Positions 15,021 to 60,729 of a stretch of DNA of 64,000 bases are shown piece by piece. The stretch's first letter is position 1; every line of letters starts with the position of its first letter. The DNA is from Chloroflexi bacterium ADurb.Bin180 (lineage in GTDB: Bacteria > Chloroflexota > Anaerolineae > UBA2200), in assembly GCA_002070215.1 (NCBI GenBank), contig MWCV01000007.1:1660-65659 (forward strand). The letters are read 5' to 3'. The notes under the pieces were generated by a model. The model made no database searches. It was not told the origin of the DNA and was given only the letters and a program-made list of their open reading frames with translations. The position numbers and the translations under genes are program-made.

Positions 15021-15064
15021 CGTGATCCTCCTGTGAAGCTGAGTTGTTGCGGTTGTTCTTGTGC

Positions 15065-15094: not shown

Positions 15095-15103
15095 CGCCAT
15101 GCT

Positions 15104-17145: not shown

Positions 17146-17182
17146 GCAACCTTACACCAGAGGTCGCACGTGGCAGACCGCG

Positions 17183-18061: not shown

Positions 18062-18179
18062 CTCTGTCTCCTTTTGTTCGGGCAGATTGCTGCCGCAGGA
18101 GGCCGCCTGAGCCCCTGTTCCCTCTCAGGGGCCGCGGTTTGAACGGGTCCGCGAGGCGCCGCCCGCGGCAGGAAAACAG

Positions 18180-18803
18180 CTAGAGTTTGGTTTCGACTTC
18201 CTTGAGCACACGCTCCTTGAGTTCCGGCTTGCCGGAAAGCAGCGCCATGAGCTTGAGCCGTTCCTGACCGACAAAAACCTCGTCTTTGATGCTGCCGAGG
18301 TTGATCAGCACGTTTAACGCAGCGGCGCGCAGCCCGGCCTCGGCCATCAATGCCGCCACGCCCACATCACTCACCGCGCGCACGTTGCCTTTGGCCGTTG
18401 CCTCGGGACAAAGACGCAGAACGTCGACGCAGACCTGGGCCAGCTCCATCGGCACGGCGGTGGCGTTCTTGAGGGCCGCCTGCATGGCCGCACTGCGGGT
18501 CGCCTTCTGCTCATCCGTGTCGCGTGGCATCTTGGAGACTTGGGATACTTCGCTGTAGGCCGCGACGTCGGCATCGAGCAGTTCCTGGCACTTGCAGCGC
18601 AGCGCCTCCGACTCTTTGAGCAGGCGCTGGATGTCGTCCTGGACGTTGACATAGTCTTTCTTGCCCAGGGTGAGATTGGCCACCATGCTCACCAGGGCGG
18701 CTCCGACCGCGCCAGCCAGTGCGGCGGCGCTGCCCCCACCCGGGGCAGGGGCAGAGCTGGCCAGTTCATCGAGGAAAGCGTTGAGGGGTTTGTCAATCAG
18801 CAT
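18180..18803 (-). CDS. fchA: Methenyltetrahydrofolate cyclohydrolase (cyclodeaminase/cyclohydrolase family)
   Basis: 207 aa FtcD-cyclodeaminase-like domain with the GGGSAAALAGAVGAAL motif; AAGGAG RBS. Confidence 0.8.
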   Translation of the reverse strand: MLIDKPLNAFLDELASSAPAPGGGSAAALAGAVGAALVSMVANLTLGKKDYVNVQDDIQRLLKESEALRCKCQELLDADVAAYSEVSQVSKMPRDTDEQKATRSAAMQAALKNATAVPMELAQVCVDVLRLCPEATAKGNVRAVSDVGVAALMAEAGLRAAALNVLINLGSIKDEVFVGQERLKLMALLSGKPELKERVLKEVETKL

Positions 18804-40454: not shown

Positions 40455-40640
40455 TACAAATAGACCTTGATTCTCCGACCCAGTTCTGCTGATGGCCAGA
40501 TTGGCCGATGAAGGCTGGGCGATAGGGTGCGGTTGGAAACGGCCGCACCTCCCATCATTGGAAAGGAGAATCGCCGCGGGAACAGTGATGACGCCGGCGC
40601 CTCCTTCCAAGTGAGGGCCGGCGTTTCTATTTCTCTGAGT
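40455..40640 (+). promoter_or_regulatory. Structured 5' leader of moaA: candidate Moco riboswitch with terminator-type expression platform
   Basis: ~190-nt GC-rich leader with several stems (ggtgcgg...ccgcacc; ctcc...ggag). It ends in a cgccggcg-(17 nt)-cgccggcg hairpin at 40592-40623 followed by tttctatttctct, 20 nt before the moaA start. Confidence 0.45.
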
Positions 40641-40659: not shown

Positions 40660-41655
40660 ATGGCCCACTATGATGCTCACAGCCGTGCAATCAATTACTT
40701 GCGCGTGTCGGTCACCGACCGCTGCAACCTGCGCTGCGAATACTGCATGCCTCCCGAAGGCATCCCCTGGATTCCCCACGACACAGTGCTGCGCTTTGAG
40801 GAGATCGCGCTCATTGTGCGGGCAGCGGCCGAGCTCGGCATCAGCCGGGTGCGGCTCACGGGAGGTGAACCGCTGGTGCGCCTGGGTGTCTGCAGTTTGG
40901 TGCGCATGCTGGCCGAGATACCTGGCGTGCAGGACCTGTCTATGACTAGCAATGGCACCTTGCTGGCCCGCTATGCCGGCGAACTGGCGGCGGCGGGCCT
41001 CGACCGGGTCAATATCAGCCTCGACACCCTGCAGCCAGAGCGCTTTGCCGCGATGACCCGCGGCGGGCGAGTTGAGGATGTGCTGGCTGGCATTGAAGCA
41101 GCACACCAGGCCGGTTTGGAGCCGGTCAAGGTCAACAGCGTCGTCATTCGTGGCGAGAACGATGACGACATCGTCGACCTGGCACGCAAGACGCTGCTGT
41201 CGGGATGGCACGTGCGCTACATCGAATGGATGCCTGTTGGCGAGACGGCACCGGAGGATGAGGCCTGGCGTCACAAGGTGGTGACCGCCGAAGAGATGAA
41301 GCAGCGCATCTCGGCCGAACTGGGGCCGCTGACTGCGGACGGGAGCATCTTCGGCGGCGGCCCGGCGCGCTACTACCGCTTGCCGGGCGCTGAGGGCACT
41401 ATCGGCTTTATCACGCCAGTCAGCGAGCATTTTTGCTATCACTGCAACCGTCTGCGCCTGACCGCTGATGGCCAGCTGCGCCCCTGCCTGCTGTCGGACA
41501 GCGAGGTAGACCTGCGCACGCCCCTCAGGGAGGGGGCCGACCTGGAGCAGATCAAGTCGCTCATTCTGCAGGCCATCGACATCAAGCCGTTGCAGCACCA
41601 TCTGAGCGAGCACGGTTGGCCGGAGAACCGGGTGATGTCGCAAATCGGTGGATGA
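40660..41655 (+). CDS. moaA: GTP 3',8-cyclase (radical SAM)
   Basis: CNLRCEYCMP radical-SAM motif, 331 aa, C-terminal auxiliary cluster CYHCNRLRLTADGQLRPCL. Confidence 0.95.
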   Translation: MAHYDAHSRAINYLRVSVTDRCNLRCEYCMPPEGIPWIPHDTVLRFEEIALIVRAAAELGISRVRLTGGEPLVRLGVCSLVRMLAEIPGVQDLSMTSNGTLLARYAGELAAAGLDRVNISLDTLQPERFAAMTRGGRVEDVLAGIEAAHQAGLEPVKVNSVVIRGENDDDIVDLARKTLLSGWHVRYIEWMPVGETAPEDEAWRHKVVTAEEMKQRISAELGPLTADGSIFGGGPARYYRLPGAEGTIGFITPVSEHFCYHCNRLRLTADGQLRPCLLSDSEVDLRTPLREGADLEQIKSLILQAIDIKPLQHHLSEHGWPENRVMSQIGG

Positions 41656-44658: not shown

Positions 44659-45486
44659 GTGGGTCTGGTAAAGGACAAAACCGGCCGGCTGCACATCGAG
44701 ACGCAGTTGATGGCCGAATCGCTGATGGACAAGGCACTGCTCGAAAAGACAGAGACGGAGAATATCTTTCGCCCGCTGCCCGAACTGAACGTGATCAAGC
44801 TGGGCGGACAGAGCATCATCGACCGGGGCGCCCAGGTAGTGCTGCCGCTCATAGCAGAGATCGTCGCTGCCAGGGCCAAGCACCAGATGCTCATCGTGAC
44901 GGGCGGCGGAACTCGGAGCCGGCATGCCTATGCTATCGCGTTGGACCTGGGCATGTCCACCGGCATTCTGGCCAAACTGGGCCAGAGCATCAGCGAGCAG
45001 AACGCGCTGATGATCAGCACACTGCTCGCTCCGCACGGCGGGGTCAAGATCGGTCACGACGAAGTGGTGCAACTGCCGGCGTACCTGGCACTGGGCATCA
45101 TTCCGGTGATGCATGCCATGCCTCCCTACGGGCTGTGGGAAGAGCCGGCGGAGAAGGGCCGCATCCCGCCGCACCGCACCGATGCCGGGGCGTTTCTGAC
45201 GGCCGAGGTGCTCGGCGCCAGACGCTGCATCCTGGTCAAGGACGAAAAGGGCCTGTTCACGGCTGATCCCAAGAAGGATCCCCAAGCCAGGTTCATTCCT
45301 GAGATCGAAGTCAATGAGCTGCTGGCGATGGACCTGGCCGACCTGGCCGTTGAACGGACCATGCTTCAGGCACTGGCGAATGCCCGCACCGCCAAAGAGG
45401 TGCTGATCATCAACGGCCGCGAAAAGGGCAACCTGACCAAGGCGCTGCAGGGCAAGAATCCGGGGACGAGGATCTTCAAAGCGTAA
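44659..45486 (+). CDS. Molybdenum storage protein (MosA/MosB)-like amino-acid-kinase family protein
   Basis: LNVIKLGGQSIIDRGAQVVLPLIAEI, RIPPHRTDAGAFL and ARFIPEIE closely mirror motifs I recall from Azotobacter MosA/MosB. AAGGAGG RBS before GTG at 44659; directly follows mogA. Confidence 0.6.
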   Translation: MGLVKDKTGRLHIETQLMAESLMDKALLEKTETENIFRPLPELNVIKLGGQSIIDRGAQVVLPLIAEIVAARAKHQMLIVTGGGTRSRHAYAIALDLGMSTGILAKLGQSISEQNALMISTLLAPHGGVKIGHDEVVQLPAYLALGIIPVMHAMPPYGLWEEPAEKGRIPPHRTDAGAFLTAEVLGARRCILVKDEKGLFTADPKKDPQARFIPEIEVNELLAMDLADLAVERTMLQALANARTAKEVLIINGREKGNLTKALQGKNPGTRIFKA

Positions 45487-47024: not shown

Positions 47025-48488
47025 ATGGATAGGCAGGGTATGACCGGCAGTGGTGCTCTCGTAGCGGAGCAGGTTTCATATGGATACCTCGGCGCGGGCA
47101 AGGCGCTGGACGGAGTCTCGCTGGCCGTTGCGCCGGGAGAGGTCGTGTTGATTACGGGACCTTCTGGCTCCGGCAAGAGCACCCTGGCGCGATGCCTGAC
47201 TGGGCTCATCCCGCACCTCTACCACGGGGAGCTGCAGGGTGCCTGCCTGGTGGATGGGGTGTTAACGACGGACACGCCGCTGTGGCGTTTGGCCAAACGG
47301 GCGGGATTCGTCTTTCAGAATCCGGGCGAGCAGCTCCTGGCTACCTCGGTGGAAGAGGAAATCATCTTTGGCCTGGAGAACCTGGGGCTGCCGGCCGAAG
47401 AGATCGAGTCGCGTCTGGAAGAGGCTCTGGAGCGCTTTGGGCTGAAGGAGATGCGCCACCGCGCTCCGCAGACTCTGTCCGGCGGGGAGCAGCAGAAGCT
47501 GGCCCTGGCGGCGATTATGGCCCGCCATCCGGCAGCGCTGGTGCTCGACGAGCCGCTGTCGATGCTGGATACCACTGCGGCCAGCGCTCTGGTTGAGCAC
47601 TTGCTCGGTTTGGCCAGAGATGGGGTCACGGTGGTGCTGTGTGAGCACCGCGCCGAGTATCTGGAGGGCAGGCCCGACGTTCGGGTCGTGTCGATGGGCG
47701 CTGCGGCACCGCATCTGGCGCCGCCATCGTCCATCCCTTTGCCAGCCAGTGCTGAGGGTCAGGTGGTGCTCGAGGTTCAGGGGCTGGGCGTCACCCTGGG
47801 TGACAAACGCGTGCTGCAAGGCCTGAACCTGGGGCTTGCCGGCGGGCAGGTAGTGGTGATCGTGGGTCGCAACGGGGTGGGCAAGACCACCCTGCTGCGG
47901 GCCCTGTGCGGGCTGCAGAAACATGAAGGGACGGTGCTAGCCGACGGTGCCAGGCCGGAGCTGGGCCTGGTCTTTCAGAATGCCGACCTGCAGCTCTTCA
48001 ACGCATCGGTGCGGGACGAGATCCTGTACCGTATGCCGCAGCCAGACATGGCCCTGTACTCGTGGTTGCTGCAGGCTCTGGGCCTGGGCAGCTACGAGCA
48101 GGTGCCCCCGCTGCTGTTGAGCGAGGGCGAGAAGAAGCGGCTGGCCCTGGCGACGGTGATGATGCGCAATCCGAAACACGGCCTGCTGCTGGATGAGCCA
48201 GCCGTTGGACAGGACGCCGCGCACAAGCAGATGCTGATGAGCATCCTGCGCGCAGTGGCGCAGAGCGGCAAGGTCGTTCTGGTGACGACTCACGACCTGT
48301 CTCTGGCAGTGCAGGCGGACCGGCTGATCCTGCTGGGCGCAGATGGTTTTGTGGCCGATGGGCCGCCCCACCAGGTGCTGCAGAACGATGCGGCGTGGTC
48401 AGCGGTGGGGCTGGTGGTTCCGGATTGGGTGAGGAACCCGGAGCGCCGGGCCGAGGCAGAGGGCGCAACGGTCGGAGGGGGTGCTTGA
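47025..48488 (+). CDS. ecfA: ECF transporter fused double ATPase (EcfA1-EcfA2)
   Basis: Two ABC cassettes (GPSGSGKSTLARCL ... LSGGEQQKLALA; GRNGVGKTTLLRAL ... LSEGEKKRLALA) in 487 aa. Confidence 0.85.
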   Translation: MDRQGMTGSGALVAEQVSYGYLGAGKALDGVSLAVAPGEVVLITGPSGSGKSTLARCLTGLIPHLYHGELQGACLVDGVLTTDTPLWRLAKRAGFVFQNPGEQLLATSVEEEIIFGLENLGLPAEEIESRLEEALERFGLKEMRHRAPQTLSGGEQQKLALAAIMARHPAALVLDEPLSMLDTTAASALVEHLLGLARDGVTVVLCEHRAEYLEGRPDVRVVSMGAAAPHLAPPSSIPLPASAEGQVVLEVQGLGVTLGDKRVLQGLNLGLAGGQVVVIVGRNGVGKTTLLRALCGLQKHEGTVLADGARPELGLVFQNADLQLFNASVRDEILYRMPQPDMALYSWLLQALGLGSYEQVPPLLLSEGEKKRLALATVMMRNPKHGLLLDEPAVGQDAAHKQMLMSILRAVAQSGKVVLVTTHDLSLAVQADRLILLGADGFVADGPPHQVLQNDAAWSAVGLVVPDWVRNPERRAEAEGATVGGGA

Positions 48489-49249
48489 TTCGGCTGGGGC
48501 CCGCGCGCGGGGCTCGCGCCATCGTGCTGAGGGAGGATTCGCCGCTTCGACGGGTGGATCCGAGGGTCAAACTGGCACTGAGTCTGGGCGCATCGCTGGC
48601 GGTGATGCTGCCTCTGGAGCGGCTGATAGCCTTTATGGCGCTCTATGCGCTTTTCCTGTTGTGGGCGCGGCTAATGGATGAGGTCGCCAGGCAGGTCTGG
48701 CGGCTCAAGTGGATTCTGATTCTGCTCTTTCTGGTGGACTGGCTGATTATCTCGCTGGACCTGGCGGTGATCGTGACCCTGCGGCTGACGCTGCTGGCGG
48801 GAACGTTCACGGTGTTCTTTGCCACGACCAAACCGGAAGAACTGCGGCTCGCCCTGGAGTGGCTGAGGGTTCCGCACCGCTACGCTTTCAGCGTGAGCCT
48901 GGCTTTTCAGAGCGTGGGCTTGCTGGACGATCAGTGGCGGGCCATTCGTGAGGCGCAACAGTCACGCGGGGCCTGGTCGCCGCCGGAAGAAAAGCGCGGT
49001 CTGCGGTGGAACGACCTGCGAGCGCAGGTCAGCGCGGTGACCCTGGCGGTCAGGGATATGGTGGCTCTGAGCGTGCCGGCTATTGTGCTGGCAGTGAAGC
49101 ACGCCTGGGCGATGAACGAGGCGGCCTACGCCCGGGGATTTGATTCGCCCGAGCGCGTGCCCTACCACCGGCTCAAGATGACCGGGCTGGACTGGCTGCT
49201 GCTGACCGGAGCTCTCGCCACAGGGGTGATTCTGGTCTGGGTGAAGTAG
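48485..49249 (+). CDS. ecfT: ECF transporter transmembrane T component (CbiQ family)
   Basis: Polytopic CbiQ-like (VDPRVKLALSLGASLAVMLP...). TTG at 48485 overlaps the ecfA stop; the ORF frame opens at 48395. Confidence 0.7.
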   Translation: MIRLGPARGARAIVLREDSPLRRVDPRVKLALSLGASLAVMLPLERLIAFMALYALFLLWARLMDEVARQVWRLKWILILLFLVDWLIISLDLAVIVTLRLTLLAGTFTVFFATTKPEELRLALEWLRVPHRYAFSVSLAFQSVGLLDDQWRAIREAQQSRGAWSPPEEKRGLRWNDLRAQVSAVTLAVRDMVALSVPAIVLAVKHAWAMNEAAYARGFDSPERVPYHRLKMTGLDWLLLTGALATGVILVWVK

Positions 49250-49272
49250 CCGCACGTGGATGGGGGTAGAGC

Positions 49273-49776
49273 GTGAAGCAAAAGACACGTATCAACATCG
49301 GACTGCTGGTCCTGGTGGTGCTTGTTGGCAGCGTGCTGGGCATCGAGGCCTGGCGCAGGGCCAGGGCGGAGCGCCAGACCGTAGGTGAGGTGGTTCTGAC
49401 GCCTGGCAGCGTGCCCATCTACCTGGACGGCCAGCTCATCGCCGGCTTTCAGCCGACGGACCTGGAGCAGCTCAGCAAGGTGAGCTTTGTCGATGCCGAA
49501 CAAGGCAAGACGCAGGAAGGGTGGCTGCTGCGCGACGTCCTCCTGCTCCACCTGCAGCGCAAGCGGCTCAAAGCAGACTCGCTCATCACGGTGAGCAGCT
49601 CAAGCCGAAACAAGTCAGCTCGAGTCACCTGGGCCCAGGCCGATGAGGCGGCCAACTGGGTCATGTTCGACCTGTCGGGGCGTGGAACACTCAAACTGGT
49701 GTCTGTTCTCGAAGGGCTCAAGACGCGCGACCAATGGGTCCAGGACGTGGACAGGATCGAGATCACGAGCAAATGA
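49273..49776 (+). CDS. Membrane-anchored protein with one cysteine-less sulfite-oxidase-like (Oxidored_molyb-like) domain
   Basis: N-terminal TM helix, then VVLTPGSVPIYLDGQ...EGWLLRDVLLLHL...NWVMFDLSGRGTLKLVSVLE...DVDRIEI. Stop overlaps start of the ECF S component (ATGA). Confidence 0.55.
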   Translation: MKQKTRINIGLLVLVVLVGSVLGIEAWRRARAERQTVGEVVLTPGSVPIYLDGQLIAGFQPTDLEQLSKVSFVDAEQGKTQEGWLLRDVLLLHLQRKRLKADSLITVSSSSRNKSARVTWAQADEAANWVMFDLSGRGTLKLVSVLEGLKTRDQWVQDVDRIEITSK

Positions 49777-50318
49777 AGCCACGTTACTTCTCGACCTTTC
49801 AACTGATTCTGCTGGCGCAGTTCGCCGCGCTGATTGTGGTAGCCAAGATCGCACTGCGGCTGCCGCTGCAGCTCCCCGGTCACTCGGGGCTCTTCTGGAT
49901 GGCCATTGTGATGGTCGGCGCCGGGGTGGTGCCCAAGCGCGGCGCGGCTACACTGATCGGGCTGACTTCGGCCATTCTGGCCGCCTTTCTCGGCCTGGGT
50001 GACTTTGGTGCCCTGGACACGTTTCTCTCCTACCTGGCGGTGGGCGTGGCGACGGATCTGGCCCTGTGGCTGATGGGCAGCCCGGAGAACCTGGCGGTGG
50101 CACCGCTGGCGGGAGCTACAGGGCATTTCGGCAAGTTCCTGGTCAAGTGGGCGCTGGCGGGTGTTCTGGGGGCGCCGATGGGGTTCGTTGCCCTAGGTCT
50201 GCTCAAGTCCATCGTCAGCTATCTGGTGTTCGGTGCGTTGGGCGGGTTCCTGGGGGCACTCACCCTGGCTGCTCTGAGGCGTGCCGGTTTCTTTGCCTAT
50301 CTGGCAGAACGAAAGTGA
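49773..50318 (+). CDS. ECF transporter substrate-specific S component (unknown substrate)
   Basis: ~181 aa with 5-6 TM helices. Translationally coupled to the upstream domain protein and downstream of ecfA/ecfT. Confidence 0.55.
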   Translation: MKPRYFSTFQLILLAQFAALIVVAKIALRLPLQLPGHSGLFWMAIVMVGAGVVPKRGAATLIGLTSAILAAFLGLGDFGALDTFLSYLAVGVATDLALWLMGSPENLAVAPLAGATGHFGKFLVKWALAGVLGAPMGFVALGLLKSIVSYLVFGALGGFLGALTLAALRRAGFFAYLAERK

Positions 50319-50323
50319 GGTAG

Positions 50324-51040
50324 GTGGCAGTGGAGATACTGAGAGGCTTTGCTCAGGCAGTGCAATTGATCCTGCACCGGGATCCCGCCTTGGCTACGAT
50401 TGTGGCGCTCTCATTGAGGGTTACGGGTATCGCTCTCCTGTTCAGCACTGTGCTCGGCATACCGCTGGGCATCTTCCTGGGCTTTAGTCGGTTTGTCGGT
50501 CGGCGGTTGGTCATCGCCATGCTTTACACTGGAATGGGCTTTCCTCCGGTGGTGGTCGGGCTGTTTGTATACATGCTCATCTCGCGCAGCGGCCCGATTG
50601 GCAAGTTGGCTCTACCCTTTGTACCCAGCCTATTCACGCCGGGGGCGATGATCATCGCACAGACGATCATCTCCTTCCCGCTGATCGCCGGCTTTACCAT
50701 GGCCGCCGTAATGGGGGTCGACCCGCAATTGCGCCAGCAGGTGATGGCTCTCGGTGCTACCCGCTGGCAGGGAGCGTGGACGGTGCTCACCGAGGCACGG
50801 GTCGGGGTGCTGGTGTCCATCGTGGCCGGCTTTGGCAGCGTGATCTCTGAGGTCGGTGCGGTGATGATGGTTGGCGGCAACATCGAGAACTATACGCGGG
50901 TGCTCACTACAGCTATCGTGCTGGAGACCAACAAAGGTCGTTTCACTCTGGCCATGGCGCTGGGGGTCATTCTGCTGGCCCTGTCGTTTATCGCCAACGT
51001 GATCATGCTGCGGCTGCAGGGAAGGACTCTGGACGAATGA
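50324..51040 (+). CDS. tupB: Tungstate/molybdate ABC transporter permease
   Basis: 238 aa ABC permease with 5-6 TM helices and an EAA-like loop; coupled to the tupC ATPase. Confidence 0.7.
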   Translation: MAVEILRGFAQAVQLILHRDPALATIVALSLRVTGIALLFSTVLGIPLGIFLGFSRFVGRRLVIAMLYTGMGFPPVVVGLFVYMLISRSGPIGKLALPFVPSLFTPGAMIIAQTIISFPLIAGFTMAAVMGVDPQLRQQVMALGATRWQGAWTVLTEARVGVLVSIVAGFGSVISEVGAVMMVGGNIENYTRVLTTAIVLETNKGRFTLAMALGVILLALSFIANVIMLRLQGRTLDE

Positions 51041-51768
51041 GCGAATCGATTTTTCGGCTCGAAGGAGTGTCCAAAGGCTACAACGGACGTTGCGTGGTCG
51101 ACGTTCCCGGGCTAGAGATCCACAGAGGAGAGATCTTTTGCGTTGTTGGCCCGAGCGGCGCCGGCAAGAGCACCCTGCTGCGGCTGCTGAACTTTCTCGA
51201 GCCGCCGAGTACGGGCACCATTCATTTTGACGGCGGCAGGTATGGCCCGGCGGACGAAGTGCCTCTGGCGCAGCGCCGCAAGGTAACCACTGTCTTTCAG
51301 CGCTCGATCCTGCTGAATCGCTCGGTCTGGGCCAACGTCGATTATGGCCTGTGGCTGCGCGGCGACAGGACGGGCGGTGAGGCGGTCGACGCGGCGCTGG
51401 AACAGGTAGGGCTCAAGGATCTGGCCCGCCAGCAAGCGCGCACGCTTTCCGGCGGCGAGCTGCAGCGCGTGGCCCTGGCCCGCGCCATTGTGATCAAGCC
51501 GGAGGTGCTGCTGCTCGATGAACCAACGGCCAACCTCGATCCGTACAACGTCGGCCTGATCGAGGAGATCGTGAGGGAGCTCAATCACACTCGCGGCACG
51601 ACGGTGGTTCTGGTGACCCATAATGTGTTTCAGGCCAAGCGCCTGGCCGACCGGGTCGCGTTGCTGTTGGAGTGCAAGCTCGTCGAGATCGCGGAGGTAC
51701 ATCAGTTCTTCGAGTCCCCCAGCGACCCGCGCACCGGGGCTTTTGTGCGCGGCGACCTGGTCTACTAA
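51037..51768 (+). CDS. tupC: Tungstate/molybdate ABC transporter ATP-binding protein
   Basis: GPSGAGKSTLLRLL Walker A, LSGGELQRVALARA signature, 243 aa. Confidence 0.8.
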   Translation: MSESIFRLEGVSKGYNGRCVVDVPGLEIHRGEIFCVVGPSGAGKSTLLRLLNFLEPPSTGTIHFDGGRYGPADEVPLAQRRKVTTVFQRSILLNRSVWANVDYGLWLRGDRTGGEAVDAALEQVGLKDLARQQARTLSGGELQRVALARAIVIKPEVLLLDEPTANLDPYNVGLIEEIVRELNHTRGTTVVLVTHNVFQAKRLADRVALLLECKLVEIAEVHQFFESPSDPRTGAFVRGDLVY

Positions 51769-52032
51769 CAAGTTGTCCAAATGGCCTGGCAGAGAGGGAC
51801 GCGCGGTGCAGGATGCAAGATACGGTCCTCGGACAATAGGTCTTGCCCACCTTTTGCCCGCATCCTGCCTCCTGTATCTTGCATCCTGCTTTGCCACAAA
51901 CGGTCGGCAGCGTCGCACCGCGACGCTGCCCGACTGACCTGAGCAAGAAGGAGGGAGTGAGACAGAAATCATTCGCCGTTCGGTTTGGGATGAGCTATGG
52001 CTCAGAGTCACTATCTTTTGGAGGAGAGAACC

Positions 52033-53370
52033 ATGAAGCGTACGTTGTCCAATCTGTTGTTGATCGTGGTGGTGCTGGGGATGCTGGTGTCCTGCAAGGC
52101 GCCGGCGCCAACTCCCACCGCAGTGCCACCGACCAAGGTGCCGCCGACGGCTACACCAGTTCCGCCGACCCCGGTACCGCCCACGCCCGTGCCGCCCACG
52201 GCTGTGCCGCCGACGCCGGCGCCGACCGCCATTCCCATGGCTGCCGGCCGCCTGCTGTTGGCCACGACCACCAGCACGCGCGATTCGGGTCTGCTCGACT
52301 TTATCCTGCCGGACTTTGAGAAGCAGTACAACGTCAAGGTCGACGTAGTGGCTGTGGGCAGCGGTCAGGCGATGAAGATCGGCCAGGACGGTAATGCCGA
52401 AGTCCTGCTGGTTCACTCGCGCGCCGCCGAAGACAAGTTCATGGCCGAAGGCCACGGCATCCGGCGCGAGGACGTGATGTACAACGACTTTGTACTGGTC
52501 GGCCCTGCCGCTGACCCGGCCGGCATCAAGGGCATGAAGAAGGCCGCCAAAGTCTTTGCCCAGATGGCCGAGAAGAAGGTCGAGTTTATCTCCCGCGCCG
52601 ACGAATCCGGCACGCATGTCAAGGAAAAGGACCTCTGGAAGGCCGCTGGAATCACCCCGGAGGGCTCCTGGTACGTTGCGGCTGGTGCAGGGATGGGCGC
52701 CGTACTCACCATGGCCAATGAAAAGCAGGCCTACACGCTGAGCGACCGCGCTACCTATCTGGCCCGCAAGGCAGAAGGGCTGCAACTGGAGATCCTGGTC
52801 GAGGGTGATCCAGTGATGTTCAACCCCTACGGGGTCATCCAGGTCGATCCGAAGAAGAACACGCAGATCAAGGGCGAGTTGGCCAAAGAGTTCATCGACT
52901 GGATCGTCTCCGTGCCGGTGCAGGAAAAGATCGCCACCTTCGGTGTCGACAAGTGGGGTGCGCCGCTCTTCTTCCCCGACTCGACCCTGTACAAGGCCGC
53001 TCACGCCCCGGCCCCGGCCGCGGGACTCAAGATTACCGGACTGGTCAACAAGCCGGTAACGCTGTCTGAGGCCGAGGTCAAGGCCATGCCGACGATGGAA
53101 GCCGAGCGCGCCAACAAGGAAGGCGTCATGGAAAAGTACACCGGCGTGTCCATCGTCAAGCTGCTCGAGCTCGCCGGCCACAAGGCCGAGGCAACGACCC
53201 TTGTCTTTGTTGCCGAGGATGGCTACACCGCCGATGTCGTCCTGGCCGATGTGCTCAAGTGCGAAAAGTGCATCCTGTCTTTCCGCAGCCAGGGTGGCTT
53301 TAGCTCGGTCCTGCCCGATTTCTCGGGCAAGGCGCAGGTCAAGGGCGTCGTGGAGATGCAGCTAAAGTAG
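52033..53370 (+). CDS. tupA: Tungstate-binding lipoprotein TupA fused to a C-terminal sulfite-oxidase-like domain
   Basis: Lipobox LVSC, PT-rich linker, TupA signature LATTTSTRDSGLLD, then a ~125-aa domain (GLKITGLVNKPVTLSEAEVKAMP...YTGVSIVKLLELAG...DGYTADVV). GGAGGAGAG RBS before ATG at 52033. Confidence 0.8.
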   Translation: MKRTLSNLLLIVVVLGMLVSCKAPAPTPTAVPPTKVPPTATPVPPTPVPPTPVPPTAVPPTPAPTAIPMAAGRLLLATTTSTRDSGLLDFILPDFEKQYNVKVDVVAVGSGQAMKIGQDGNAEVLLVHSRAAEDKFMAEGHGIRREDVMYNDFVLVGPAADPAGIKGMKKAAKVFAQMAEKKVEFISRADESGTHVKEKDLWKAAGITPEGSWYVAAGAGMGAVLTMANEKQAYTLSDRATYLARKAEGLQLEILVEGDPVMFNPYGVIQVDPKKNTQIKGELAKEFIDWIVSVPVQEKIATFGVDKWGAPLFFPDSTLYKAAHAPAPAAGLKITGLVNKPVTLSEAEVKAMPTMEAERANKEGVMEKYTGVSIVKLLELAGHKAEATTLVFVAEDGYTADVVLADVLKCEKCILSFRSQGGFSSVLPDFSGKAQVKGVVEMQLK

Positions 53371-53684
53371 CCGACCGCCCAGGTCAACTACTTCAGTCGG
53401 CTTCTTGCCGATGCGGCAGTTGCACCGTCCGGTACCCGGTCACGCCTGTACAGCGATGAGGGCCGGCGGTGCAGCTGCCAGCAGACGAAGAGCTCAGCAG
53501 GAAACCCCTGCCCGCGGATGGCTCCAGTCTGGCCCGACCTGGCTCTGTCAGCGGCGGCGTTACGCCGCTGCTGCGGGGCTTGGCCGGGTCGTGCGGAAAA
53601 CTGCTGGCGCCTCAGCGTGCAGGGCGTACCCGACTGACAGGTTCGACGCAAATCCCATTCCGCTCTGGAACGAGGAGAGAAACC

Positions 53685-54614
53685 GTGTGGAAACGTAGGT
53701 TCTCGAGGCTGTTCGCTCTCTTGGCAATCCTTCTGGTGCTTGTTGTCGTCGCCGGCATCGCTGCCGCCATGGCCGGGGCCAAGGCCCTGGCTCCGCTCAA
53801 GACCGCCACGGTCTATCCTTGGGCCATGCTGGCCTCCGAAGCCGACACCGTCAATCGTTGCCTGACGTGCCACAAGGCAGACGAGATGCATACGTGCCAG
53901 ACCTGCCACGACGCCCACGGGGGACTGGAGATGCCCAACATCCCCTTTGACGCCGTGGTGCAATTGGTAGGCGATTTCCCGCAGCCCGCTGTGGTGCAGC
54001 TCAATCAGATCTTTCCTTACGTCGAACGGCCGAACACAGCCATCGTACTGACCCAGTTCCTGCGCGACAAGGGAGTCGAGCAGTTCGAGAGCGTGACCCT
54101 TGCCGCGCCTGATGGAGCGGCGGTGACTCTGGAACCGGCCAACCTGACCGACGACGCCGTGCTCATACCCCACAAAGACGGAATGCGCTTCAGGGCAGAG
54201 AACCTGCACATCTCGACCTGGCTCAAGGGGATCACGCGCATTATTGTGGTGGGAACGCACAAGCCGCTGACCATTGACGGCACGGCCACATCTATCGGCC
54301 GGCTGCTTCTCGGGCCGACCTCCAGCGTCACGGTTGAGCCGAGCGACGTAATGCTCAAGAGCCCGGAAGACGGCGAAATACGCCAGGGTCGGACCTTCTC
54401 GCGCGTTGAGGGGGCGGCGGTCGAACCGCTGCTCGCCAACAGCGCCTTTTCGCGGCTGTTGGTCCGCGACGGGTCTGGGCGTCAGTACGAGCTTTCCAGA
54501 GAAGACGCCCGCGGCGCGCTGCTCACCCAGATGTGGGGCAAGACAGTCCTGGTACTGCCGGAGCGAGGACGCGCCAGGTGGGTGGCGGACGTGATTGACC
54601 TTGTCAGCCAGTAG
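53685..54614 (+). CDS. Membrane-anchored diheme c-type cytochrome fused to two sulfite-oxidase-like domains
   Basis: GTG at 53685 with GGAGAG upstream; TM helix; CLTCH and CQTCH heme-binding motifs; then two domains (VVQLVGDFPQPAVV...STWLKGITRIIVVG; LTIDGTATSIGRLL...RARWVADVIDLV). Confidence 0.6.
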   Translation: MWKRRFSRLFALLAILLVLVVVAGIAAAMAGAKALAPLKTATVYPWAMLASEADTVNRCLTCHKADEMHTCQTCHDAHGGLEMPNIPFDAVVQLVGDFPQPAVVQLNQIFPYVERPNTAIVLTQFLRDKGVEQFESVTLAAPDGAAVTLEPANLTDDAVLIPHKDGMRFRAENLHISTWLKGITRIIVVGTHKPLTIDGTATSIGRLLLGPTSSVTVEPSDVMLKSPEDGEIRQGRTFSRVEGAAVEPLLANSAFSRLLVRDGSGRQYELSREDARGALLTQMWGKTVLVLPERGRARWVADVIDLVSQ

Positions 54615-54644
54615 GCGACATTCGACATCAGAGATGGAGGTTGA

Positions 54645-55130
54645 ATGATGCGCAGGAACGTTGTCATTGCTTTGCTGCTCGTTGCGGTGGTGTTGTGCAG
54701 TTGCGCTCCCAAGGGCAGCGCTGCCCCGACTGTGGACTGGAAGCTGGACATCAAGGGCGATGTGGGCAAGCCCGTCTCCCTGACCTATGCCGACCTGGCC
54801 AAGATGCCACAAATTACACTCAAAGACGTGATGATGCAAAAGGCTGCCGGTGAGCCCGAGCCGACGACCTGGACCGGTGTCGCTCTCTCCGAGATCCTGA
54901 AACAGGCAGAGGGTGATGCCAACCCATCGTCGATTACGGCCGTAGCCGCCGATGGCTATGCCGTGGCCATACCCCGCGACGAGCTGGAGGGAGCCATCGT
55001 TGCGCTGAAGGACGGCAAGGACTGGATTGTCAAATCAGATCCCGATAAGGGGCCGATTCGCCTGGTCTGCCCCAAGGCGCCAGCCAATCGCTGGCTGTTT
55101 TCGCTGACCGAGATCAAAGTCAAGAAGTAG
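54645..55130 (+). CDS. Lipoprotein with single cysteine-less sulfite-oxidase-like (Oxidored_molyb-like) domain
   Basis: Lipobox LCSCA, then WKLDIKGDVGKPVSLTYADLAKMP...TWTGVALSEILKQAEG...AADGYAVAI...GPIRLVCPKAPANRWLFSLTEIKV. No Mo-ligand Cys loop; GGAGG RBS. Confidence 0.6.
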   Translation: MMRRNVVIALLLVAVVLCSCAPKGSAAPTVDWKLDIKGDVGKPVSLTYADLAKMPQITLKDVMMQKAAGEPEPTTWTGVALSEILKQAEGDANPSSITAVAADGYAVAIPRDELEGAIVALKDGKDWIVKSDPDKGPIRLVCPKAPANRWLFSLTEIKVKK

Positions 55131-55160
55131 ATTATGCTTTCTGTGCCGGAGGGTGTGCTT

Positions 55161-56591
55161 ATGAGCAAGTTGCGGACTCTGATGCTGGCCGTACTGGTGC
55201 TGTGTCTGGCGGTTGGCTGTGGTCAGCCTGGCGACCATGGCGGTCAGACCAAACCGACTGCTGCACCTACGTCACCGGTGGTGCTGGAACTGGTGGGCCC
55301 GACCGGAACGAAAACACTGACCATGGACGAGCTGAAGGCGCTACCGGTGGAGGAGGGCTGGTCAGGTTACAAGAACAGCGTGGGGAGGATCACCCTTCCC
55401 GAGCGCTACAAGGGCGTATCAATGGAGTACCTGTGCAGCCTGGTTGGCGGCCTTACGCCAGAACGAGCGGTCGAGATGGTGGGTGCCGACGGCTACTTTA
55501 TGACCCTGTCGTACAAAGAGGCGATGGAAGGCAAGCTGGTGACCTACGACCCGGGCACAGGCAAGGAGATCCAGTTCAACGAGCCGCTCAAGACCATCAT
55601 CGCCTTCGAAAGGGAAGGCCAGCCGCTCCCCGCCGCCAGCGACGGAGCCCTGCGCTTTGCCGCCATCAGTGCCAGAAATAACCAGCTCATCGATGGCCAC
55701 TGGACCGTCAAGTGGCTGGCCAAGCTGGTGCTGAAGGAGGCCACGCGCGATTGGACGTTGCACCTGGAAGGCCAGATAGTCGAGGAGATGTCCAAGTCGA
55801 CATTCGAGTCCGGCGCCACTCCCTGCTGCCATCGCCGTATCTGGACCGATGAACAGGGTGGCATCTGGGCGGGCATACCGCTCTGGCACCTGATCGGGCG
55901 CATAGACGACGACATCACCCATCAGGCCGGCGGCTTTAACGACGGCATTGCCAAACTCGGCTACACCGTCGAGCTCGTCGCGGCTGACGGCTACTCCGTT
56001 ACCTTTGATAGCTCGCGAGTCAGGTACAACAACAACCTGATTGTGGTGAACACGCTGGACGAAAAGCCACTGGAAGACAAGTACTTCCCGCTGCGTCTCG
56101 TTGGCTCGGATGTGCAGAAGAAAGACGCCATTGCTCAGATTACCAGCATCATCCTGCATTTGCCCAAGGGAGTTCCGCTGCCCACGGCAGTGATCCCCGC
56201 ACCGGGAGCGCCGATGCCAACTCTGCCGCCCAGCAGTTCGGCCCCGACGCTGGTGATTCGGGGCAACGTGGAGAAAGAGCTGACCTTCTCGATGGCCGAG
56301 CTCAAGGCCATGGCTATCGACCTCGAGACTGAGCATCCCATCGAGGGCATGGGCAAGTACAGCGGCGCGCGAATCCACGAGCTGCTGCAGAAAGCCGGCG
56401 CCAAGCCAGGTATCAAGTTCGCGGTGCTGGTCTCTGGCGACGGCGCACGAACGTCGATGCCCTTTGGACTGTTGGATGGCTGTGCCGACTGCCTGGCCGG
56501 GTTCAGCTACGACGGCCGGCTCCTGTCCGTGATGCCGACGATGGACTGTTACTTCTGGATCAAAGACCTGGTGGCTATCGAACTCGACTAG
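55161..56591 (+). CDS. Lipoprotein with three tandem sulfite-oxidase-like domains
   Basis: Lipobox AVGCG. Domain 1 ends DGHWTVKWLAKLVLKE, domain 2 ends KYFPLRLVGSDVQKKDAIAQITSIIL, domain 3 begins PTLVIRGNVEKELTFSMAELKAMA and ends CYFWIKDLVAIELD. Confidence 0.6.
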   Translation: MSKLRTLMLAVLVLCLAVGCGQPGDHGGQTKPTAAPTSPVVLELVGPTGTKTLTMDELKALPVEEGWSGYKNSVGRITLPERYKGVSMEYLCSLVGGLTPERAVEMVGADGYFMTLSYKEAMEGKLVTYDPGTGKEIQFNEPLKTIIAFEREGQPLPAASDGALRFAAISARNNQLIDGHWTVKWLAKLVLKEATRDWTLHLEGQIVEEMSKSTFESGATPCCHRRIWTDEQGGIWAGIPLWHLIGRIDDDITHQAGGFNDGIAKLGYTVELVAADGYSVTFDSSRVRYNNNLIVVNTLDEKPLEDKYFPLRLVGSDVQKKDAIAQITSIILHLPKGVPLPTAVIPAPGAPMPTLPPSSSAPTLVIRGNVEKELTFSMAELKAMAIDLETEHPIEGMGKYSGARIHELLQKAGAKPGIKFAVLVSGDGARTSMPFGLLDGCADCLAGFSYDGRLLSVMPTMDCYFWIKDLVAIELD

Positions 56592-56655: not shown

Positions 56656-57747
56656 GTGAGACGTCGGCTGCTTGTGGTTTGCCTGTGCTTTCTGCTGGTG
56701 TTGCCGGCCGGGTGCGCCCCAAAGAAGAGAACCGCGGTGCCCGTCTTTTTCGCGGGGAGTCTCATTATCCCTTTCCAGGAACTCGAGGCGGCTTACGAGG
56801 CGCAACATCCGGAGGTGGACCTGCTGCTGGAGGGCCATGGCAGCATCCAGGTTATCCGCCACGTGACCGAGATACACGAGCTCATCGATGTGGTGGTGAC
56901 GGCCGACCACGCGCTCATCCCGATGCTGATGTACTCGGCGCAGGTGCCGGAAACCAGGGCGCCCTATGCCGACTGGTACATCGAATTCGCCACGAACAAG
57001 CTCTCGCTGGCCTATCGATCCGACAGCCGCTACGCTAACGAGATCACCGCAGACAACTGGTACGAGGTCATCTCGCGCCCCGACGTCAGACTGGGTCTGG
57101 CCGACCCGCGCTTTGATGCCTGCGGCTACCGCGCGCTGATGGTGGTGCAGATGGCCGAAAAGCTCTACGGCCAGCCCACATTGTTCGAAGACCTGATCAC
57201 CGGCAGCTTCCGCACCGGGATCACCACGCGCCTGGAGAACGGACGCCTGGTCATTCACGTGCCAGAGATCCTCGAGGTCAAGGACAAGTCGCCTCTGGTG
57301 CTCCGCGCCTACAGCATTCAACTGATAGCGCTGCTCGAATCGGGCGACCTGGACTATGCTTTCGAGTATGAGAGCGTCATCAAGCAGCACCAGCTCCAGT
57401 CGGTGGCGCTTCCCGACGAACTGAACCTGGGTGCTGAGGCGCTGGCCGATCACTATGGCCAGGTAGAAGTGCGTATGGACTATCAGCGCTTCGCTTCGGT
57501 GCAGCCGGTGTTTCGCGGCGAGCCCATCGCCTACGGGGTGACCATTCCCACCAATGCTCCTCATCCCGCAGAAGCGGCGAGGTTCGTGGCCTTTTTGCTG
57601 GGGCCAGAGGGACAAAAGATCCTGCTGAACAACCATCAGCCCCTGATCATCCCCGGACGAGCCAGCAACTATGAGCGTGTGCCTGCGGCACTGCAGTCAC
57701 TGTGCGTGCCGGCGCCCGAGCTATCGGGCACCGGCCTGTTAAGGTGA
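56656..57747 (+). CDS. wtpA: Molybdate/tungstate-binding lipoprotein of the WtpA/ModA family
   Basis: Lipobox LPAGCA, VFFAGSLIIPFQELEAAYEAQHP start, and 363 aa length fit WtpA better than ModA. Confidence 0.6.
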   Translation: MRRRLLVVCLCFLLVLPAGCAPKKRTAVPVFFAGSLIIPFQELEAAYEAQHPEVDLLLEGHGSIQVIRHVTEIHELIDVVVTADHALIPMLMYSAQVPETRAPYADWYIEFATNKLSLAYRSDSRYANEITADNWYEVISRPDVRLGLADPRFDACGYRALMVVQMAEKLYGQPTLFEDLITGSFRTGITTRLENGRLVIHVPEILEVKDKSPLVLRAYSIQLIALLESGDLDYAFEYESVIKQHQLQSVALPDELNLGAEALADHYGQVEVRMDYQRFASVQPVFRGEPIAYGVTIPTNAPHPAEAARFVAFLLGPEGQKILLNNHQPLIIPGRASNYERVPAALQSLCVPAPELSGTGLLR

Positions 57748-57751: not shown

Positions 57752-58588
57752 GTGAGCAGCCCCAGGGCGGCGCCTTCCGGTACGGGGCGATTTCGCCGAC
57801 CCGACGGGCTGGCCAAAGCATTTGCCCTGTTGAGCGCGCTGCTGTTACTCTTTGTGCTGCTGCCGCTGCTGGACACTCTGCTGGGAACCAGCTTCAGGGC
57901 GCTGCTGGCCACGCTGACTGATTCGCAGGTTATGAACGCACTGGCACTGACCTTTCTTGCCGCTGCCGTGGCCACTTTGCTCACCCTTCTGACTGGAGTT
58001 CCTCTGGCCTACCTTCTGGCGCGCTATGACTTTGGCGGCAAGAGGTGGGTAGAGGGGGTGGTGAACCTGCCGGTGGTGGTTCCCCATACGGCTGCCGGCA
58101 TCGCCCTGCTGATGGTCTTTGGCCGGCAGGGGGTGCTGGGCAAGCCGCTGGGAACGGTGGGGCTCAGCTTTACCGATACCTTTGCCGGGGTAGTGGTGGG
58201 GATGCTCTTTGTGAGCCTGCCGTTCCTGGTGAACGCGGCCAGAGAGTCCTTCGAGATGGTGGATCCCGAGCTGGAGAGAATGGCCGAGACGCAGGGTGCC
58301 ACGAGCTGGCAGGCTTTCTGGTTGGTGGCCTTGCCTCTGGCCCTGCGGGGCATCCTGGCGGGGGCGCTCTTGATGTGGGGCCGGGCCATCAGCGAGTTCG
58401 GCGCGGTGGTGATCCTGGCGTATCACCCCAAGACCGTGCCGGTGCTCGTTTTTGAGCGCTTTGAAGGTTTCGGTCTGGCGGCGGCTCAGCCGGTGGCGGT
58501 GCTGCTCATCATCGCTTCGCTGGCGGTGTTCGTACTCCTCCAGACGCTGGTCGTCCCCCCTCGCGACGGACGGCACTCGAACCTCTAG
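57752..58588 (+). CDS. wtpB: Molybdate/tungstate ABC transporter permease (WtpB/ModB family)
   Basis: CysT/ModB-like permease (MVDPELERMAETQGATSWQAFWLVALP EAA loop). No cognate ATPase follows. Confidence 0.7.
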   Translation: MSSPRAAPSGTGRFRRPDGLAKAFALLSALLLLFVLLPLLDTLLGTSFRALLATLTDSQVMNALALTFLAAAVATLLTLLTGVPLAYLLARYDFGGKRWVEGVVNLPVVVPHTAAGIALLMVFGRQGVLGKPLGTVGLSFTDTFAGVVVGMLFVSLPFLVNAARESFEMVDPELERMAETQGATSWQAFWLVALPLALRGILAGALLMWGRAISEFGAVVILAYHPKTVPVLVFERFEGFGLAAAQPVAVLLIIASLAVFVLLQTLVVPPRDGRHSNL

Positions 58589-59421: not shown

Positions 59422-60729
59422 CTACATTCCTCCCTTGCCAAACGGGTCGACCCAGGTCTCGAGCGCGGCCTTGAGCTCCGGGTGCTCTTTGGCTGCGTCC
59501 TCGAGGGGCCTCCCGCTCATCGTCGCGTCGATGGCCTGGCGGAAGGCCTTGGCGCCAGCCACCGGCCCCTGCGGATGAGCATGGATGCCGCCTCCGGAGC
59601 CAATGACAATGTCCGGTCCAAGGTCCTTCATCACTGACGGCACCATCGCCGGAGTGATGCCGCCGCTGGGCATGGGGAAGGTGGGGCGCAGGTTGTAGAG
59701 AGGGAAGCTCAGGTTGCGCGCCACGCTGACGAACTTGTCCGGGATCACCGGAGCCTTGCCATAGGGCGCGGGGAACACGATGATGTCGGCGCCGGCCAGG
59801 CGCGGCAGCTTGCCGAGCACAATGTGCGAGCTCATCCCGTGCCACTCTGACTCGTAGAGCGCCCCCGCCAGGTCCATATGGGCCAGGATGGGCACGTTGA
59901 GCGACTTGTCCTCGGCCAGGGCCCGCAGCACCGGAAAGCCAGCCACCAGATAGTTGATCATGAGCGCGTTGGCGCCCAGCTCCACCGCGCGGTGGGCGTT
60001 CTCGAATACCTTGGGGATCTCGTCGGTCACATTGACCGTGTACAGCGTGTGCTCGCCCGTTTCCTCAAAGACCTCTTTCTCAGCCTGCATATACAACTTG
60101 ACGCGCGATTCGATGTCGCAGAAGCAGGCGTTGGCCAGCAGTTCGTCATCTTTGATGATGTCGCAGCCGCCAAGAGCAGCCGCTTTGAAGAGCTTGCCCC
60201 CCAGCTCGGGCGGGTAGCCGGTGCACGGCTTGATCATGTTATTGAGCAGCGGACGCTTCGGAACGCCCAGTGCCTTGCGAATGCCGGGGACGCCAAAACG
60301 CGGCCCCTGAAAGCCGTCGACATACTGCTTCGGAAAACGCACGTCAACCAGCTTTAATCGGCCGGCCATCGAGATGTTGCCGATCACCGTGGTCAGCATC
60401 ATCGGGATCTGCGGACCAAAGTTGACCACCGGAAAGGCGAGCTGGATCAGGTACTGCCGGTCGGTCACCGAGGTCGGAACAGACCACTCATAGTCGGGGA
60501 TCTCGTAGACGCCAATGACCTTAGCTACGTGCTTCCGGCGCACCTCTGGCGTCTCCCCGGGCACCGGCACCCAGGTTCCCGTGGACTGCTCGATGGCCAG
60601 AGCGGGTGCCATCTTGGCCACCGGAAAGCCGTTGGGGAAGGAAACAGCAAAGGTGCCGATTACGTAATCCTCATAGTCGATTCCGTCGGGCAAAGCGATA
60701 GGCAGTGACTCGACATCCATCTTGGGCAT
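59422..60729 (-). CDS. RuBisCO large-subunit family protein (RuBisCO-like protein / form III-like)
   Basis: GGCDIIKDDE matches GGLDFTKDDE (K201/D203/E204), and STGTWVPV and GGGIHAHP are conserved. KPKLG is KPCTG, so K177 is replaced by Cys. 435 aa. Confidence 0.75.
   Translation of the reverse strand: MPKMDVESLPIALPDGIDYEDYVIGTFAVSFPNGFPVAKMAPALAIEQSTGTWVPVPGETPEVRRKHVAKVIGVYEIPDYEWSVPTSVTDRQYLIQLAFPVVNFGPQIPMMLTTVIGNISMAGRLKLVDVRFPKQYVDGFQGPRFGVPGIRKALGVPKRPLLNNMIKPCTGYPPELGGKLFKAAALGGCDIIKDDELLANACFCDIESRVKLYMQAEKEVFEETGEHTLYTVNVTDEIPKVFENAHRAVELGANALMINYLVAGFPVLRALAEDKSLNVPILAHMDLAGALYESEWHGMSSHIVLGKLPRLAGADIIVFPAPYGKAPVIPDKFVSVARNLSFPLYNLRPTFPMPSGGITPAMVPSVMKDLGPDIVIGSGGGIHAHPQGPVAGAKAFRQAIDATMSGRPLEDAAKEHPELKAALETWVDPFGKGGM

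Follow-up and report, generated by a model that had tools for sequence, protein, structure and literature searches.

A candidate membrane-anchored dihaem cytochrome with two cysteine-less sulfite oxidase-like domains and a proposed role in tungsten or tungsten-cofactor acquisition in Anaerolineae

Sulfite dehydrogenases of the SorAB and SoxCD type pair a domain of the sulfite oxidase (SUOX) fold with haem c outside the cytoplasmic membrane. In MsrPQ (YedYZ) the electrons for a periplasmic SUOX-fold protein come from a membrane partner that contains haem; MsrQ is a polytopic membrane protein with haem b, and MsrP a Tat-exported molybdenum cofactor (Moco) enzyme with a Cys ligand. Here we describe a gene, hereafter the target, whose product joins a candidate haem c unit and two SUOX-like domains without cysteine (D1 and D2) on one chain. 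It lies in 64,000 nucleotides (nt) of contig MWCV01000007.1 from Chloroflexi bacterium ADurb.Bin180; the whole of this stretch is referred to as the window. An initial annotation, made from the sequence alone, had invoked the logic of SorA/SorB. This stands only as an analogy, since neither domain has the cysteine that ligates Mo: D1 has lost the hairpin segment, and that of D2 contains no cysteine. The target differs further from SorAB and SoxCD in that its candidate haems sit on the same chain, as a compact pair of CxxCH motifs, and in its context, which is uptake and not sulfur oxidation.

Known uptake of tungsten and molybdenum proceeds, to our knowledge, through oxyanion-binding ABC systems (Mod, Tup and Wtp) with no redox step, and a bacterial importer for the pterin cofactor as such is not known to us. 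The CbiMNQO operon encodes, in CbiN, an additional small component anchored in the membrane. The pairing of CbiMNQO with the B12 riboswitch provides a case in which a riboswitch for a finished cofactor controls a metal importer (PMC13119186). The usual operon of the target (see below) is alike in having dedicated S, A and T components of an energy-coupling factor (ECF) importer behind a riboswitch sensing a finished cofactor; it differs in its accessory, a candidate dihaem protein with SUOX-like domains in tandem, in an S component that joins a YkoE/ABC_cobalt-type membrane domain to SUOX-like domains, and in its riboswitch, which is that for Moco and the tungsten cofactor (Tuco). Aptamers of this class that lack the P3 element have been associated with tungsten-cofactor genes (Regulski et al. 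2008, PMC2408646). PruR, finally, is a secreted, Cys-less and truncated SUOX fold, and shows that a degenerate fold of this kind is able to bind pterins instead of Moco (PMC11194511). The target has two tandem copies, haems and a membrane anchor, in contrast to PruR; no GGDEF/EAL or kinase neighbour of the sort found in the pruR-dcpA operon was seen in the annotated loci, and the proteins are not proteobacterial. SorAB, MsrPQ and PruR share parts of the logic of the target; none shares its architecture or its context. A search of the literature on tungsten/Tuco, ECF and SUOX-like domains found no account of an ECF operon under a Moco/Tuco riboswitch or of the target family.

All four cysteines of the target protein sit in two haem c attachment motifs, CLTCH and CQTCH (the latter at residues 71-75, nt 53895-53909). 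The signature C..CH-x5-H-x-C..CH-xx-HG is kept in each of the 119 full-length sequences among the top 120 homologues, and no variation occurs at C59, C62, H63, H69, C71, C74, H75, D76, H78 or G79 among 38 sequences, the most distant of which share 52% identity. On these alignments, the invariance of the haem unit is not explained by chance. Candidates for distal haem ligands are H69 and H78, both invariant, and M83, which is nearly so; the AlphaFold2 (AF2) model, of mean pLDDT 83.9, is of low confidence only in the apo haem segment (about 45 residues, pLDDT 52-62). H78, three residues past the proximal histidine (CxxCHxxHG), is kept even in members with a single haem motif. In such members it cannot ligate that haem from the distal side, a hint at a ligand that bridges a dimer or at some other role.

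Ahead of the haem segment lies a single hydrophobic helix, preceded by four positive charges; N-termini rich in Lys and Arg recur across the family, and residues 2-29 are helical in the AF2 model. The helix serves as a signal-anchor or else belongs to a long signal peptide, for which AxA sites at residues 27-33 offer possible points of cleavage. From the charges and the single helix, the target is predicted to be membrane-anchored with its N-terminus inside and the remainder, haem segment included, outside. An outside location also fits the homology of the downstream domains to lipoprotein domains. No conserved Tat motif was found among the homologues, in which the twin arginine of MWKRRF varies; Sec-type export is usual for haem c proteins and for lipoproteins such as the partners of the target. 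Neither of the routes by which SUOX enzymes can be loaded with their cofactor, a cytoplasmic location and Tat export, is indicated for the target.

The relationship of D1 and D2 to the SUOX fold was established through a family of neighbouring lipoproteins that is itself PF00174-positive (Pfam Oxidored_molyb, 7e-13) and matches SorA (2blf, E 1e-5) and YedY (1xdq, 1.5e-4). Profile comparison by HHalign of this family with D1 gave a probability of 97.8% (E 1e-12) and with D2 of 97.3% (E 2e-11), and D1 compared to D2 gave 93% (E 3e-7). For D1 the comparison is weak when based on close homologues alone (13%) and becomes decisive once the remote members from an exhaustive search are added. In library-wide searches the target-family profile reaches proteins whose matched regions are PF00174. 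Direct searches returned little: Pfam and NCBIfam hold no model for the family, the target has no match to PF00174 at E <= 1 and none to a SUOX dimerisation-domain model, and the family profile yielded only noise against the PDB sequences. A Foldseek search with the AF2 model retrieved as its best PDB matches the PruR pterin-binding proteins (probability 0.98-1.0 for 7kou, 7kos, 7rkb and 7kp2, and 0.82 for 7kom; E about 0.014, target-normalised TM 0.43-0.49).

Both domains carry a set of invariant residues, which includes D143, R168, H175, S177, W179, K181 and R185 in D1, and D229, G230, R233, T237, R240, R294, R296 and W299 in D2. The 17-residue deletion in D1 lies directly upstream of a conserved W-G-V motif and, by positional reasoning over transitive alignments, would fall where SUOX enzymes carry the Cys hairpin; D2 keeps the hairpin in a Cys-less form, and no cysteine exists outside the CxxCH motifs. 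The lack of a Mo ligand led us to reject the simple reading as an enzyme like sulfite dehydrogenase, and D1 and D2 are, on this sequence evidence, SUOX-fold relatives without the defining Mo ligand. Of the PruR triad (N102, Y104 and W160 in AtPruR), the Trp is kept as W179 and W299 according to the transitive alignment, the only one available for this comparison; the DGY tyrosine of the neighbouring lipoproteins is replaced by Ala or Gly in D1 and by Arg in D2. The initial annotation had described a membrane-anchored protein with two CxxCH motifs and two copies of one domain that lacks the Mo-ligand region; sequence, AF2 model and HHalign bear this anatomy out. That the target is a candidate dihaem cytochrome of the c type, located outside the cytoplasm and bearing a pair of degenerate SUOX domains, is firmly supported.

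The GTG start proposed for the gene is also borne out: it is preceded by the Shine-Dalgarno-like GAGGAGAG, gene callers give 309 amino acids (aa) and the same boundaries for a 95%-identical orthologue on independent contigs, and MWKRR is the N-terminus common to the homologues. Two competing frames were considered. A longer open reading frame (ORF) from 53469 is not favoured, as it crosses the intergenic region between tupA and the target, in which there are many indels among the aligned orthologous loci; an antisense ORF of 483 aa (53388-54839) was rejected on the grounds that homologues, gene calls elsewhere and residue-level conservation all fit the 309-aa frame of the plus strand. Exact look-up of the window protein gave no match (the GTG was perhaps read as Val), and orthologues were taken instead.

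To define the context of the target, the component proteins of its operon were searched by tblastn over 80 species loci, one of which (L063, from the complete chromosome of a metagenome-assembled genome, or MAG) was annotated in detail. The usual operon, which is tight, begins with the ECF S component and its fused SUOX-like domain(s); a fused A/A' ATPase and the T component come next, then the target, an NPP-type phosphodiesterase and a SUOX-like lipoprotein. The membrane part of the S component, the ATPase and the T component occupy fixed upstream positions, and the NPP-like and SUOX-like genes fixed downstream positions, each set in about 60 of the 80 loci; in L063 the start of the target overlaps the T-component gene by 4 nt. 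The S component consists of a YkoE/ABC_cobalt-type membrane domain followed by one or two SUOX-like domains, its C-terminal region giving an HHalign probability of 97.3% (E 1.7e-11). The SUOX lipoprotein downstream is Cys-less. The NPP-type lipoprotein keeps the Thr in PPKTST, as well as D..GH.YGP and DHGM, which we take to be the NPP catalytic motifs; the SUOX-like match at its N-terminus is weak. All partner proteins of the target are lipoproteins.

This operon is frequently headed by a riboswitch. Matches to Rfam RF01055 above the gathering score lie just upstream of it in L063 and L027, and at 40464 in the window. A covariance model built from three matches and run over the loci detected 57 aptamers, none with insert columns at the P3 position. 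Where at least 4.7 kb of upstream DNA is available (54 loci), a same-strand aptamer stands upstream of the target in 37; for 34 of the 37 it is located 3.6-4.4 kb from the start of the target match, a distance that puts it immediately before the gene for the S component. An intrinsic terminator and next a ribosome-binding site come after the aptamer in L063, the layout of an OFF switch. In L002, which shares the arrangement of the window, the riboswitch heads tupB-tupC-tupA(SUOX)-target. A 594-aa lipoprotein in L077 (10810-12594, minus strand), with four SUOX domains (Pfam 4e-65) and its sole cysteine in the lipobox, sits behind two tandem P3-less aptamers (12743-12859 and 13321-13437, both minus strand). 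Similar minus-strand aptamer pairs occur in L079, L083 and L085. On the evidence of these loci it is firmly supported that the target belongs to a gene set often found behind a proposed tungsten-cofactor riboswitch and adjoining importers.

The arrangement in the window is that of a minority. Here the target does not share an operon with dedicated S, A and T components and follows tupA, and no riboswitch was found directly upstream of the tup-target block, the sole aptamer of the window being the one at 40464. The target has moved into a plus-strand gene run, between a tupA-SUOX fusion and further SUOX lipoproteins with wtpAB; of the 80 loci, about 12 have tup genes adjoining the ECF operon. 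Handling of W or Mo had been raised as one possible role for the protein. The link is stronger than was suggested, given the P3-less riboswitch upstream in most related genomes and the position between tupBCA-like genes and wtpAB; on the other hand, the usual partners are an ECF importer and an NPP enzyme, and not Tup.

The family of the target comprises more than 443 homologues of about 305 aa, all of them unnamed; clustering at 50% identity leaves only about 70 groups. When GTDB was scanned with a single genome for each species, 89 species proved to have a relative. Those 80 loci that were retained come without exception from Chloroflexota, mostly Anaerolineae, and having been gathered with the closer and not the diverse alignment they are biased to the clade with two haems. 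This core clade carries both motifs; in one homologue (P0121) motif 1 takes the form CxxxxCH, a haem-binding variant. A remoter clade has only the second unit, CxxCHxxHG, and the remotest members, while devoid of CxxCH, still possess the anchor and both domains. The flanking genes of P0165, a haem-less member, still include SUOX-like ones and one that is NPP-like. The initial annotation had made its reading dependent on conservation of the CxxCH motifs in orthologues: they are invariant in the close ones, but remote members keep the second alone or neither. Because members with one or no motif keep the domains and the neighbours, the haems are, on this comparison, a lineage-specific addition to a haem-independent core, strictly constrained where present.

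A metagenomic fragment of 192 aa (P0174) has two further CxxCH motifs directly upstream of a CSTCHDAHGG-MEMSKVPFDAIVWLLGDVP junction; it represents a multihaem variant of greater length or else an assembly chimera. In P0180 and P0185, which are Peripla_BP_2 binding proteins of the siderophore/haem/B12 type, C-terminal segments match the target profile; the segment is PF00174-positive in P0185 and not in P0180. As judged from such fusions, the SUOX-like domain is appended to several kinds of uptake protein beyond TupA. The NCBIfam family NF041762 ('GEGP motif-containing diheme protein') is dihaem by name, and its positions 126-203 of 359 resemble the SUOX-like domain of the neighbouring lipoproteins. 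The target has no match to NF041762 at E <= 1, and the neighbours reach 21-28 bits compared to a cut-off of 300; our literature search found no paper with the phrase 'GEGP motif'.

What, then, might the target do? We favor, at about an even chance, the view that it is an extracytoplasmic redox accessory in the acquisition of tungsten or of the tungsten cofactor, with the haems acting on the cargo. The link of the family to tungsten is well supported; the redox mechanism we infer. The system would be switched on when the tungsten cofactor is scarce and would supply tungsten or a precursor of the cofactor. The cargo may sit in the SUOX-like clefts, or these may dock with the corresponding SUOX-like domains of importer components, and the two closely packed, probably bis-His haems would pass electrons to or from the cargo, which would then be handed to the ECF or the Tup/Wtp importers; the NPP enzyme may remove the nucleotide from dinucleotide forms of the cofactor. 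As to the nature of the cargo, we put forward tentatively, and with some doubt, a pyranopterin-type molecule, either Moco/Tuco or a fragment. It is favored because the SUOX fold binds molybdenum-molybdopterin and PruR binds pterins, because NPP enzymes cleave nucleotide pyrophosphate bonds, and because the S component is of the vitamin type and pterins are redox-active. A bound oxyanion had earlier been named as a possible electron acceptor; a pterin is at least as plausible.

A bolder version, which we think unlikely, is a pathway for the salvage or 'mining' of extracellular pyranopterins during shortage of tungsten cofactor. NPP would strip the nucleotide from released cofactors of the Mo/W-bis-MGD type, and the Cys-less SUOX domains of the lipoproteins, TupA, the ECF S component and the cytochrome would capture the metal-pterin. 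The haems could either keep the pterin/dithiolene reduced for import by ECF, or oxidise it and so free tungstate to the fused TupA.

Several observations weigh against a redox accessory of this kind. No other cytochrome was found within 10 kb of the gene in 85 loci, and no haem lyase motif of the CcsA/CcmF WWD type either there or in the window; the scan was not aimed at quinol-oxidising partners. The remote members with one haem or none, which keep D1, D2 and the NPP/SUOX neighbours, suggest that the core function is haem-independent, and the fusions of SUOX-like domains to Peripla_BP_2 proteins fit a generic docking role. The pterin-stacking Tyr of PruR is apparently not conserved in D1 or D2, as far as a transitive alignment can tell. 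In 17 of the 54 loci with enough upstream DNA there is no detectable upstream aptamer, and the assignment of P3-less aptamers to the tungsten cofactor was itself made by bioinformatics. Lastly, a complete pathway for Moco biosynthesis is encoded, so salvage of the cofactor is non-essential for these organisms.

The cargo might instead be inorganic, which is the main alternative. The SUOX-like domains would then act as a surface antenna for tungstate or thiotungstate (or the Mo analogues) that serves Tup/Wtp and ECF, and the haems would oxidise or reduce the ligands that the metal carries (sulfido ligands, for instance, where the habitat is sulfidic), thereby producing the oxyanion that the binding proteins accept. 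The place of the target directly between the tupA-SUOX fusion and wtpAB, the tup genes beside the ECF operon in other loci, the parallel with the B12 riboswitch and CbiMNQO (PMC13119186) and the many invariant Arg, Lys, Ser, Thr and His residues of D1 and D2 all speak for this possibility. It leaves the NPP-type phosphodiesterase without an obvious role, however, and the S component is of the YkoE/vitamin type and not of the CbiM/NikM metal type. Further points against it are that free tungstate is hard to reduce, that TupA or WtpA is normally enough for uptake, and that we know of no cofactor-less SUOX domain that binds an oxyanion. On balance we hold inorganic cargo to be somewhat unlikely. 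Distinctly unlikely, in our judgment, is a purely non-catalytic scaffold, on which the SUOX-like domains would dock binding proteins, the S component and NPP at the membrane while the haems, structural or part of a redox sensor that gates uptake, would pass no electrons to the cargo. The recurrence of the same domain on the S component, on TupA and on stand-alone lipoproteins (the match at the NPP N-terminus being weak) speaks for a scaffold; so do its fusion to Peripla_BP_2 binding proteins, which are unrelated, the unchanged neighbours of haem-less members, and the lack of a nearby redox partner gene in the 10-kb scan. Yet the invariance of the C..CH-x5-H-x-C..CH-xx-HG signature in 119 sequences argues for a selected redox or ligand function, and multi-domain SUOX lipoproteins behind tandem riboswitches of their own fit ligand capture better.

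It is also conceivable that no haem is bound by the CxxCH pairs and that they serve to stabilise an extracytoplasmic linker, as a Cys4/His metal knuckle or through two disulfides. The motifs are just 7 residues apart, they lie in the segment that is poorly modelled by AF2, and no cytochrome-family Pfam model matched the target significantly (Paired_CXXCH_1, E 0.1). Against this, the His right after each CxxC is invariant, as are two further histidines, P0121 substitutes CxxxxCH for motif 1, P0174 joins its CSTCHDAHG unit to two more upstream CxxCH motifs, and low AF2 confidence is expected at an apo haem site. We therefore consider the absence of haem very improbable. That the protein is a structural relic, the last option offered by the initial annotation, is unlikely because the haem motif is invariant and the operon is under riboswitch control.

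The prospect of a redox accessory in tungsten acquisition is of interest on several counts. A haem c protein, an NPP-type phosphodiesterase and many cofactor-less copies of a Moco fold are unexpected inside operons that are usually headed by the proposed tungsten-cofactor riboswitch, and the Anaerolineae that carry the family are abundant, mostly uncultured anaerobes of digesters and sediments. The system combines known kinds of component (haem c, a degenerate SUOX fold, an importer controlled by a cofactor riboswitch), and there is a realistic chance that the process is new. If the favored reading is correct, it would add a step to trace-metal or cofactor economy, give a function to widespread lipoproteins that are labelled 'molybdopterin-dependent oxidoreductase' and are unable to bind molybdenum, and extend the precedent of PruR for degenerate SUOX folds as ligand binders. 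Were salvage to prove true, it would be the first bacterial route of Moco/Tuco uptake and the target the first cytochrome to serve as an importer accessory. Direct tests are within reach, because the domains concerned are small and soluble and a read-out is available in the riboswitch.

Table 1. Coordinates of the target, its parts and neighbouring features in the window.
Feature	Position	Strand	Remarks
Shine-Dalgarno-like GAGGAGAG	53672..53679	+	ends 5 nt ahead of the GTG start; sequence read directly
Target gene, candidate dihaem / tandem SUOX-like protein, 309 aa	53685..54614	+	GTG start; stop codon 54612-54614
Single N-terminal hydrophobic helix, ~23 residues (about 8-30), after KRR..R	53706..53774	+	sequence; AF2; family N-termini
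Haem c attachment motif 1, CLTCH (C59, C62, H63), residues 59-63	53859..53873	+	
Invariant H69, candidate distal haem ligand	53889..53891	+	inferred role
Haem c attachment motif 2, CQTCH with D76, H78, G79 (CxxCHDxHG)	53895..53921	+	kept in nearly the whole family
D1, residues 86-193, shortened SUOX-like domain	53940..54263	+	17-residue deletion in hairpin segment
D2, residues 194-309, SUOX-like domain	54264..54611	+	long beta-hairpin (212-245), no cysteine
P3-less Moco/Tuco aptamer heading moaA-moaC-moaD-moaE-moeA-mogA	40464..40584	+	RF01055, 63.3 bits
Second ECF-type module: fused double ATPase, CbiQ-type T component, 167-aa ORF, ABC_cobalt-like membrane protein	47025..50318	+	
TupB-like ABC permease	50324..51040	+	ABC_perm1 2.4e-74; TupB 8.8e-46, under model cut-off
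ABC ATPase, tupC position	51037..51768	+	
Lipoprotein, TupA-like tungstate-binding domain fused to C-terminal SUOX-like domain	51997..53370	+	PBP_like_2 7e-49; TupA 1.4e-64, under cut-off; Oxidored_molyb 3.5e-6 (residues 344-433)
Lipoprotein, 161 aa, one SUOX-like domain	54645..55130	+	shortened Cys-free hairpin region
Lipoprotein, 485 aa, at least 2 SUOX-like domains	55134..56591	+	likely start 55161; two stretches by Pfam, three domains in the initial annotation
WtpA tungstate-binding lipoprotein	56656..57747	+	TIGR03730, 313.5 bits, above cut-off 242.75
WtpB-like permease	57752..58588	+	6e-87, under cut-off

Together, the features of Table 1 from the aptamer to wtpB form an island that spans about 18 kb and lies largely on the plus strand. 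The moaA gene (40660-41655) directly follows the aptamer, and the last gene of that series is MogA/MoaB-like. The second ECF module, whose 167-aa ORF has no Pfam match, abuts tupB with a gap of 5 nt and is located 3.4 kb upstream of the target; several other loci likewise have it at a distance of 3-10 kb from the target. In the 485-aa lipoprotein, the middle SUOX-like domain (about residues 205-345) has an invariant Cys-His in the hairpin region (GATPCCHRR; NCHGT in L024), which is seen only in L024 and in loci of the window type. SUOX enzymes carry CAGNRR, with the Mo-ligating Cys, in the hairpin region. A comparison of the two cysteines gave no match in the PDB, and HHalign puts the middle-domain residues in an insertion.

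A gene of the amino-acid-kinase family (44659-45486, plus strand) adjoins moeA and mogA; in L001 and L003 it is again found, next to a TiaS_TCKD-like gene and the second ECF module. Its product may be related to the Mo/W storage protein MoSto, which has the same kinase fold. At the other side of the window, 113-18803 on the minus strand holds a Wood-Ljungdahl set in which RACo, the ACS/CODH beta subunit, a CODH/prismane-family protein and a NuoF-like protein were recognised by Pfam; formate-tetrahydrofolate ligase and FolD were assigned by eye, from N-terminal sequences only. A RuBisCO-like gene lies at 59422-60729, and its orthologues in L002 and L003 have RuBisCO_large Pfam domains. The host is an anaerobic Anaerolineae MAG, probably of the acetogenic type; the window holds the tungsten-cofactor island of a Wood-Ljungdahl anaerobe.

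Between tupA and the target, the spacer of 314 nt folds into a long hairpin (approximate coordinates 53413..53482, plus strand; -55.1 kcal/mol, z -4.2), after which no terminator T-run occurs. Its 13-nt arms, GGCAGTTGCACCG and CGGTGCAGCTGCC, are conserved in L003 and L006, and a compensatory change is present in the arms in L002, a locus of 57% identity. The hairpin could be an element for RNA processing or stability, an attenuator or an operator.

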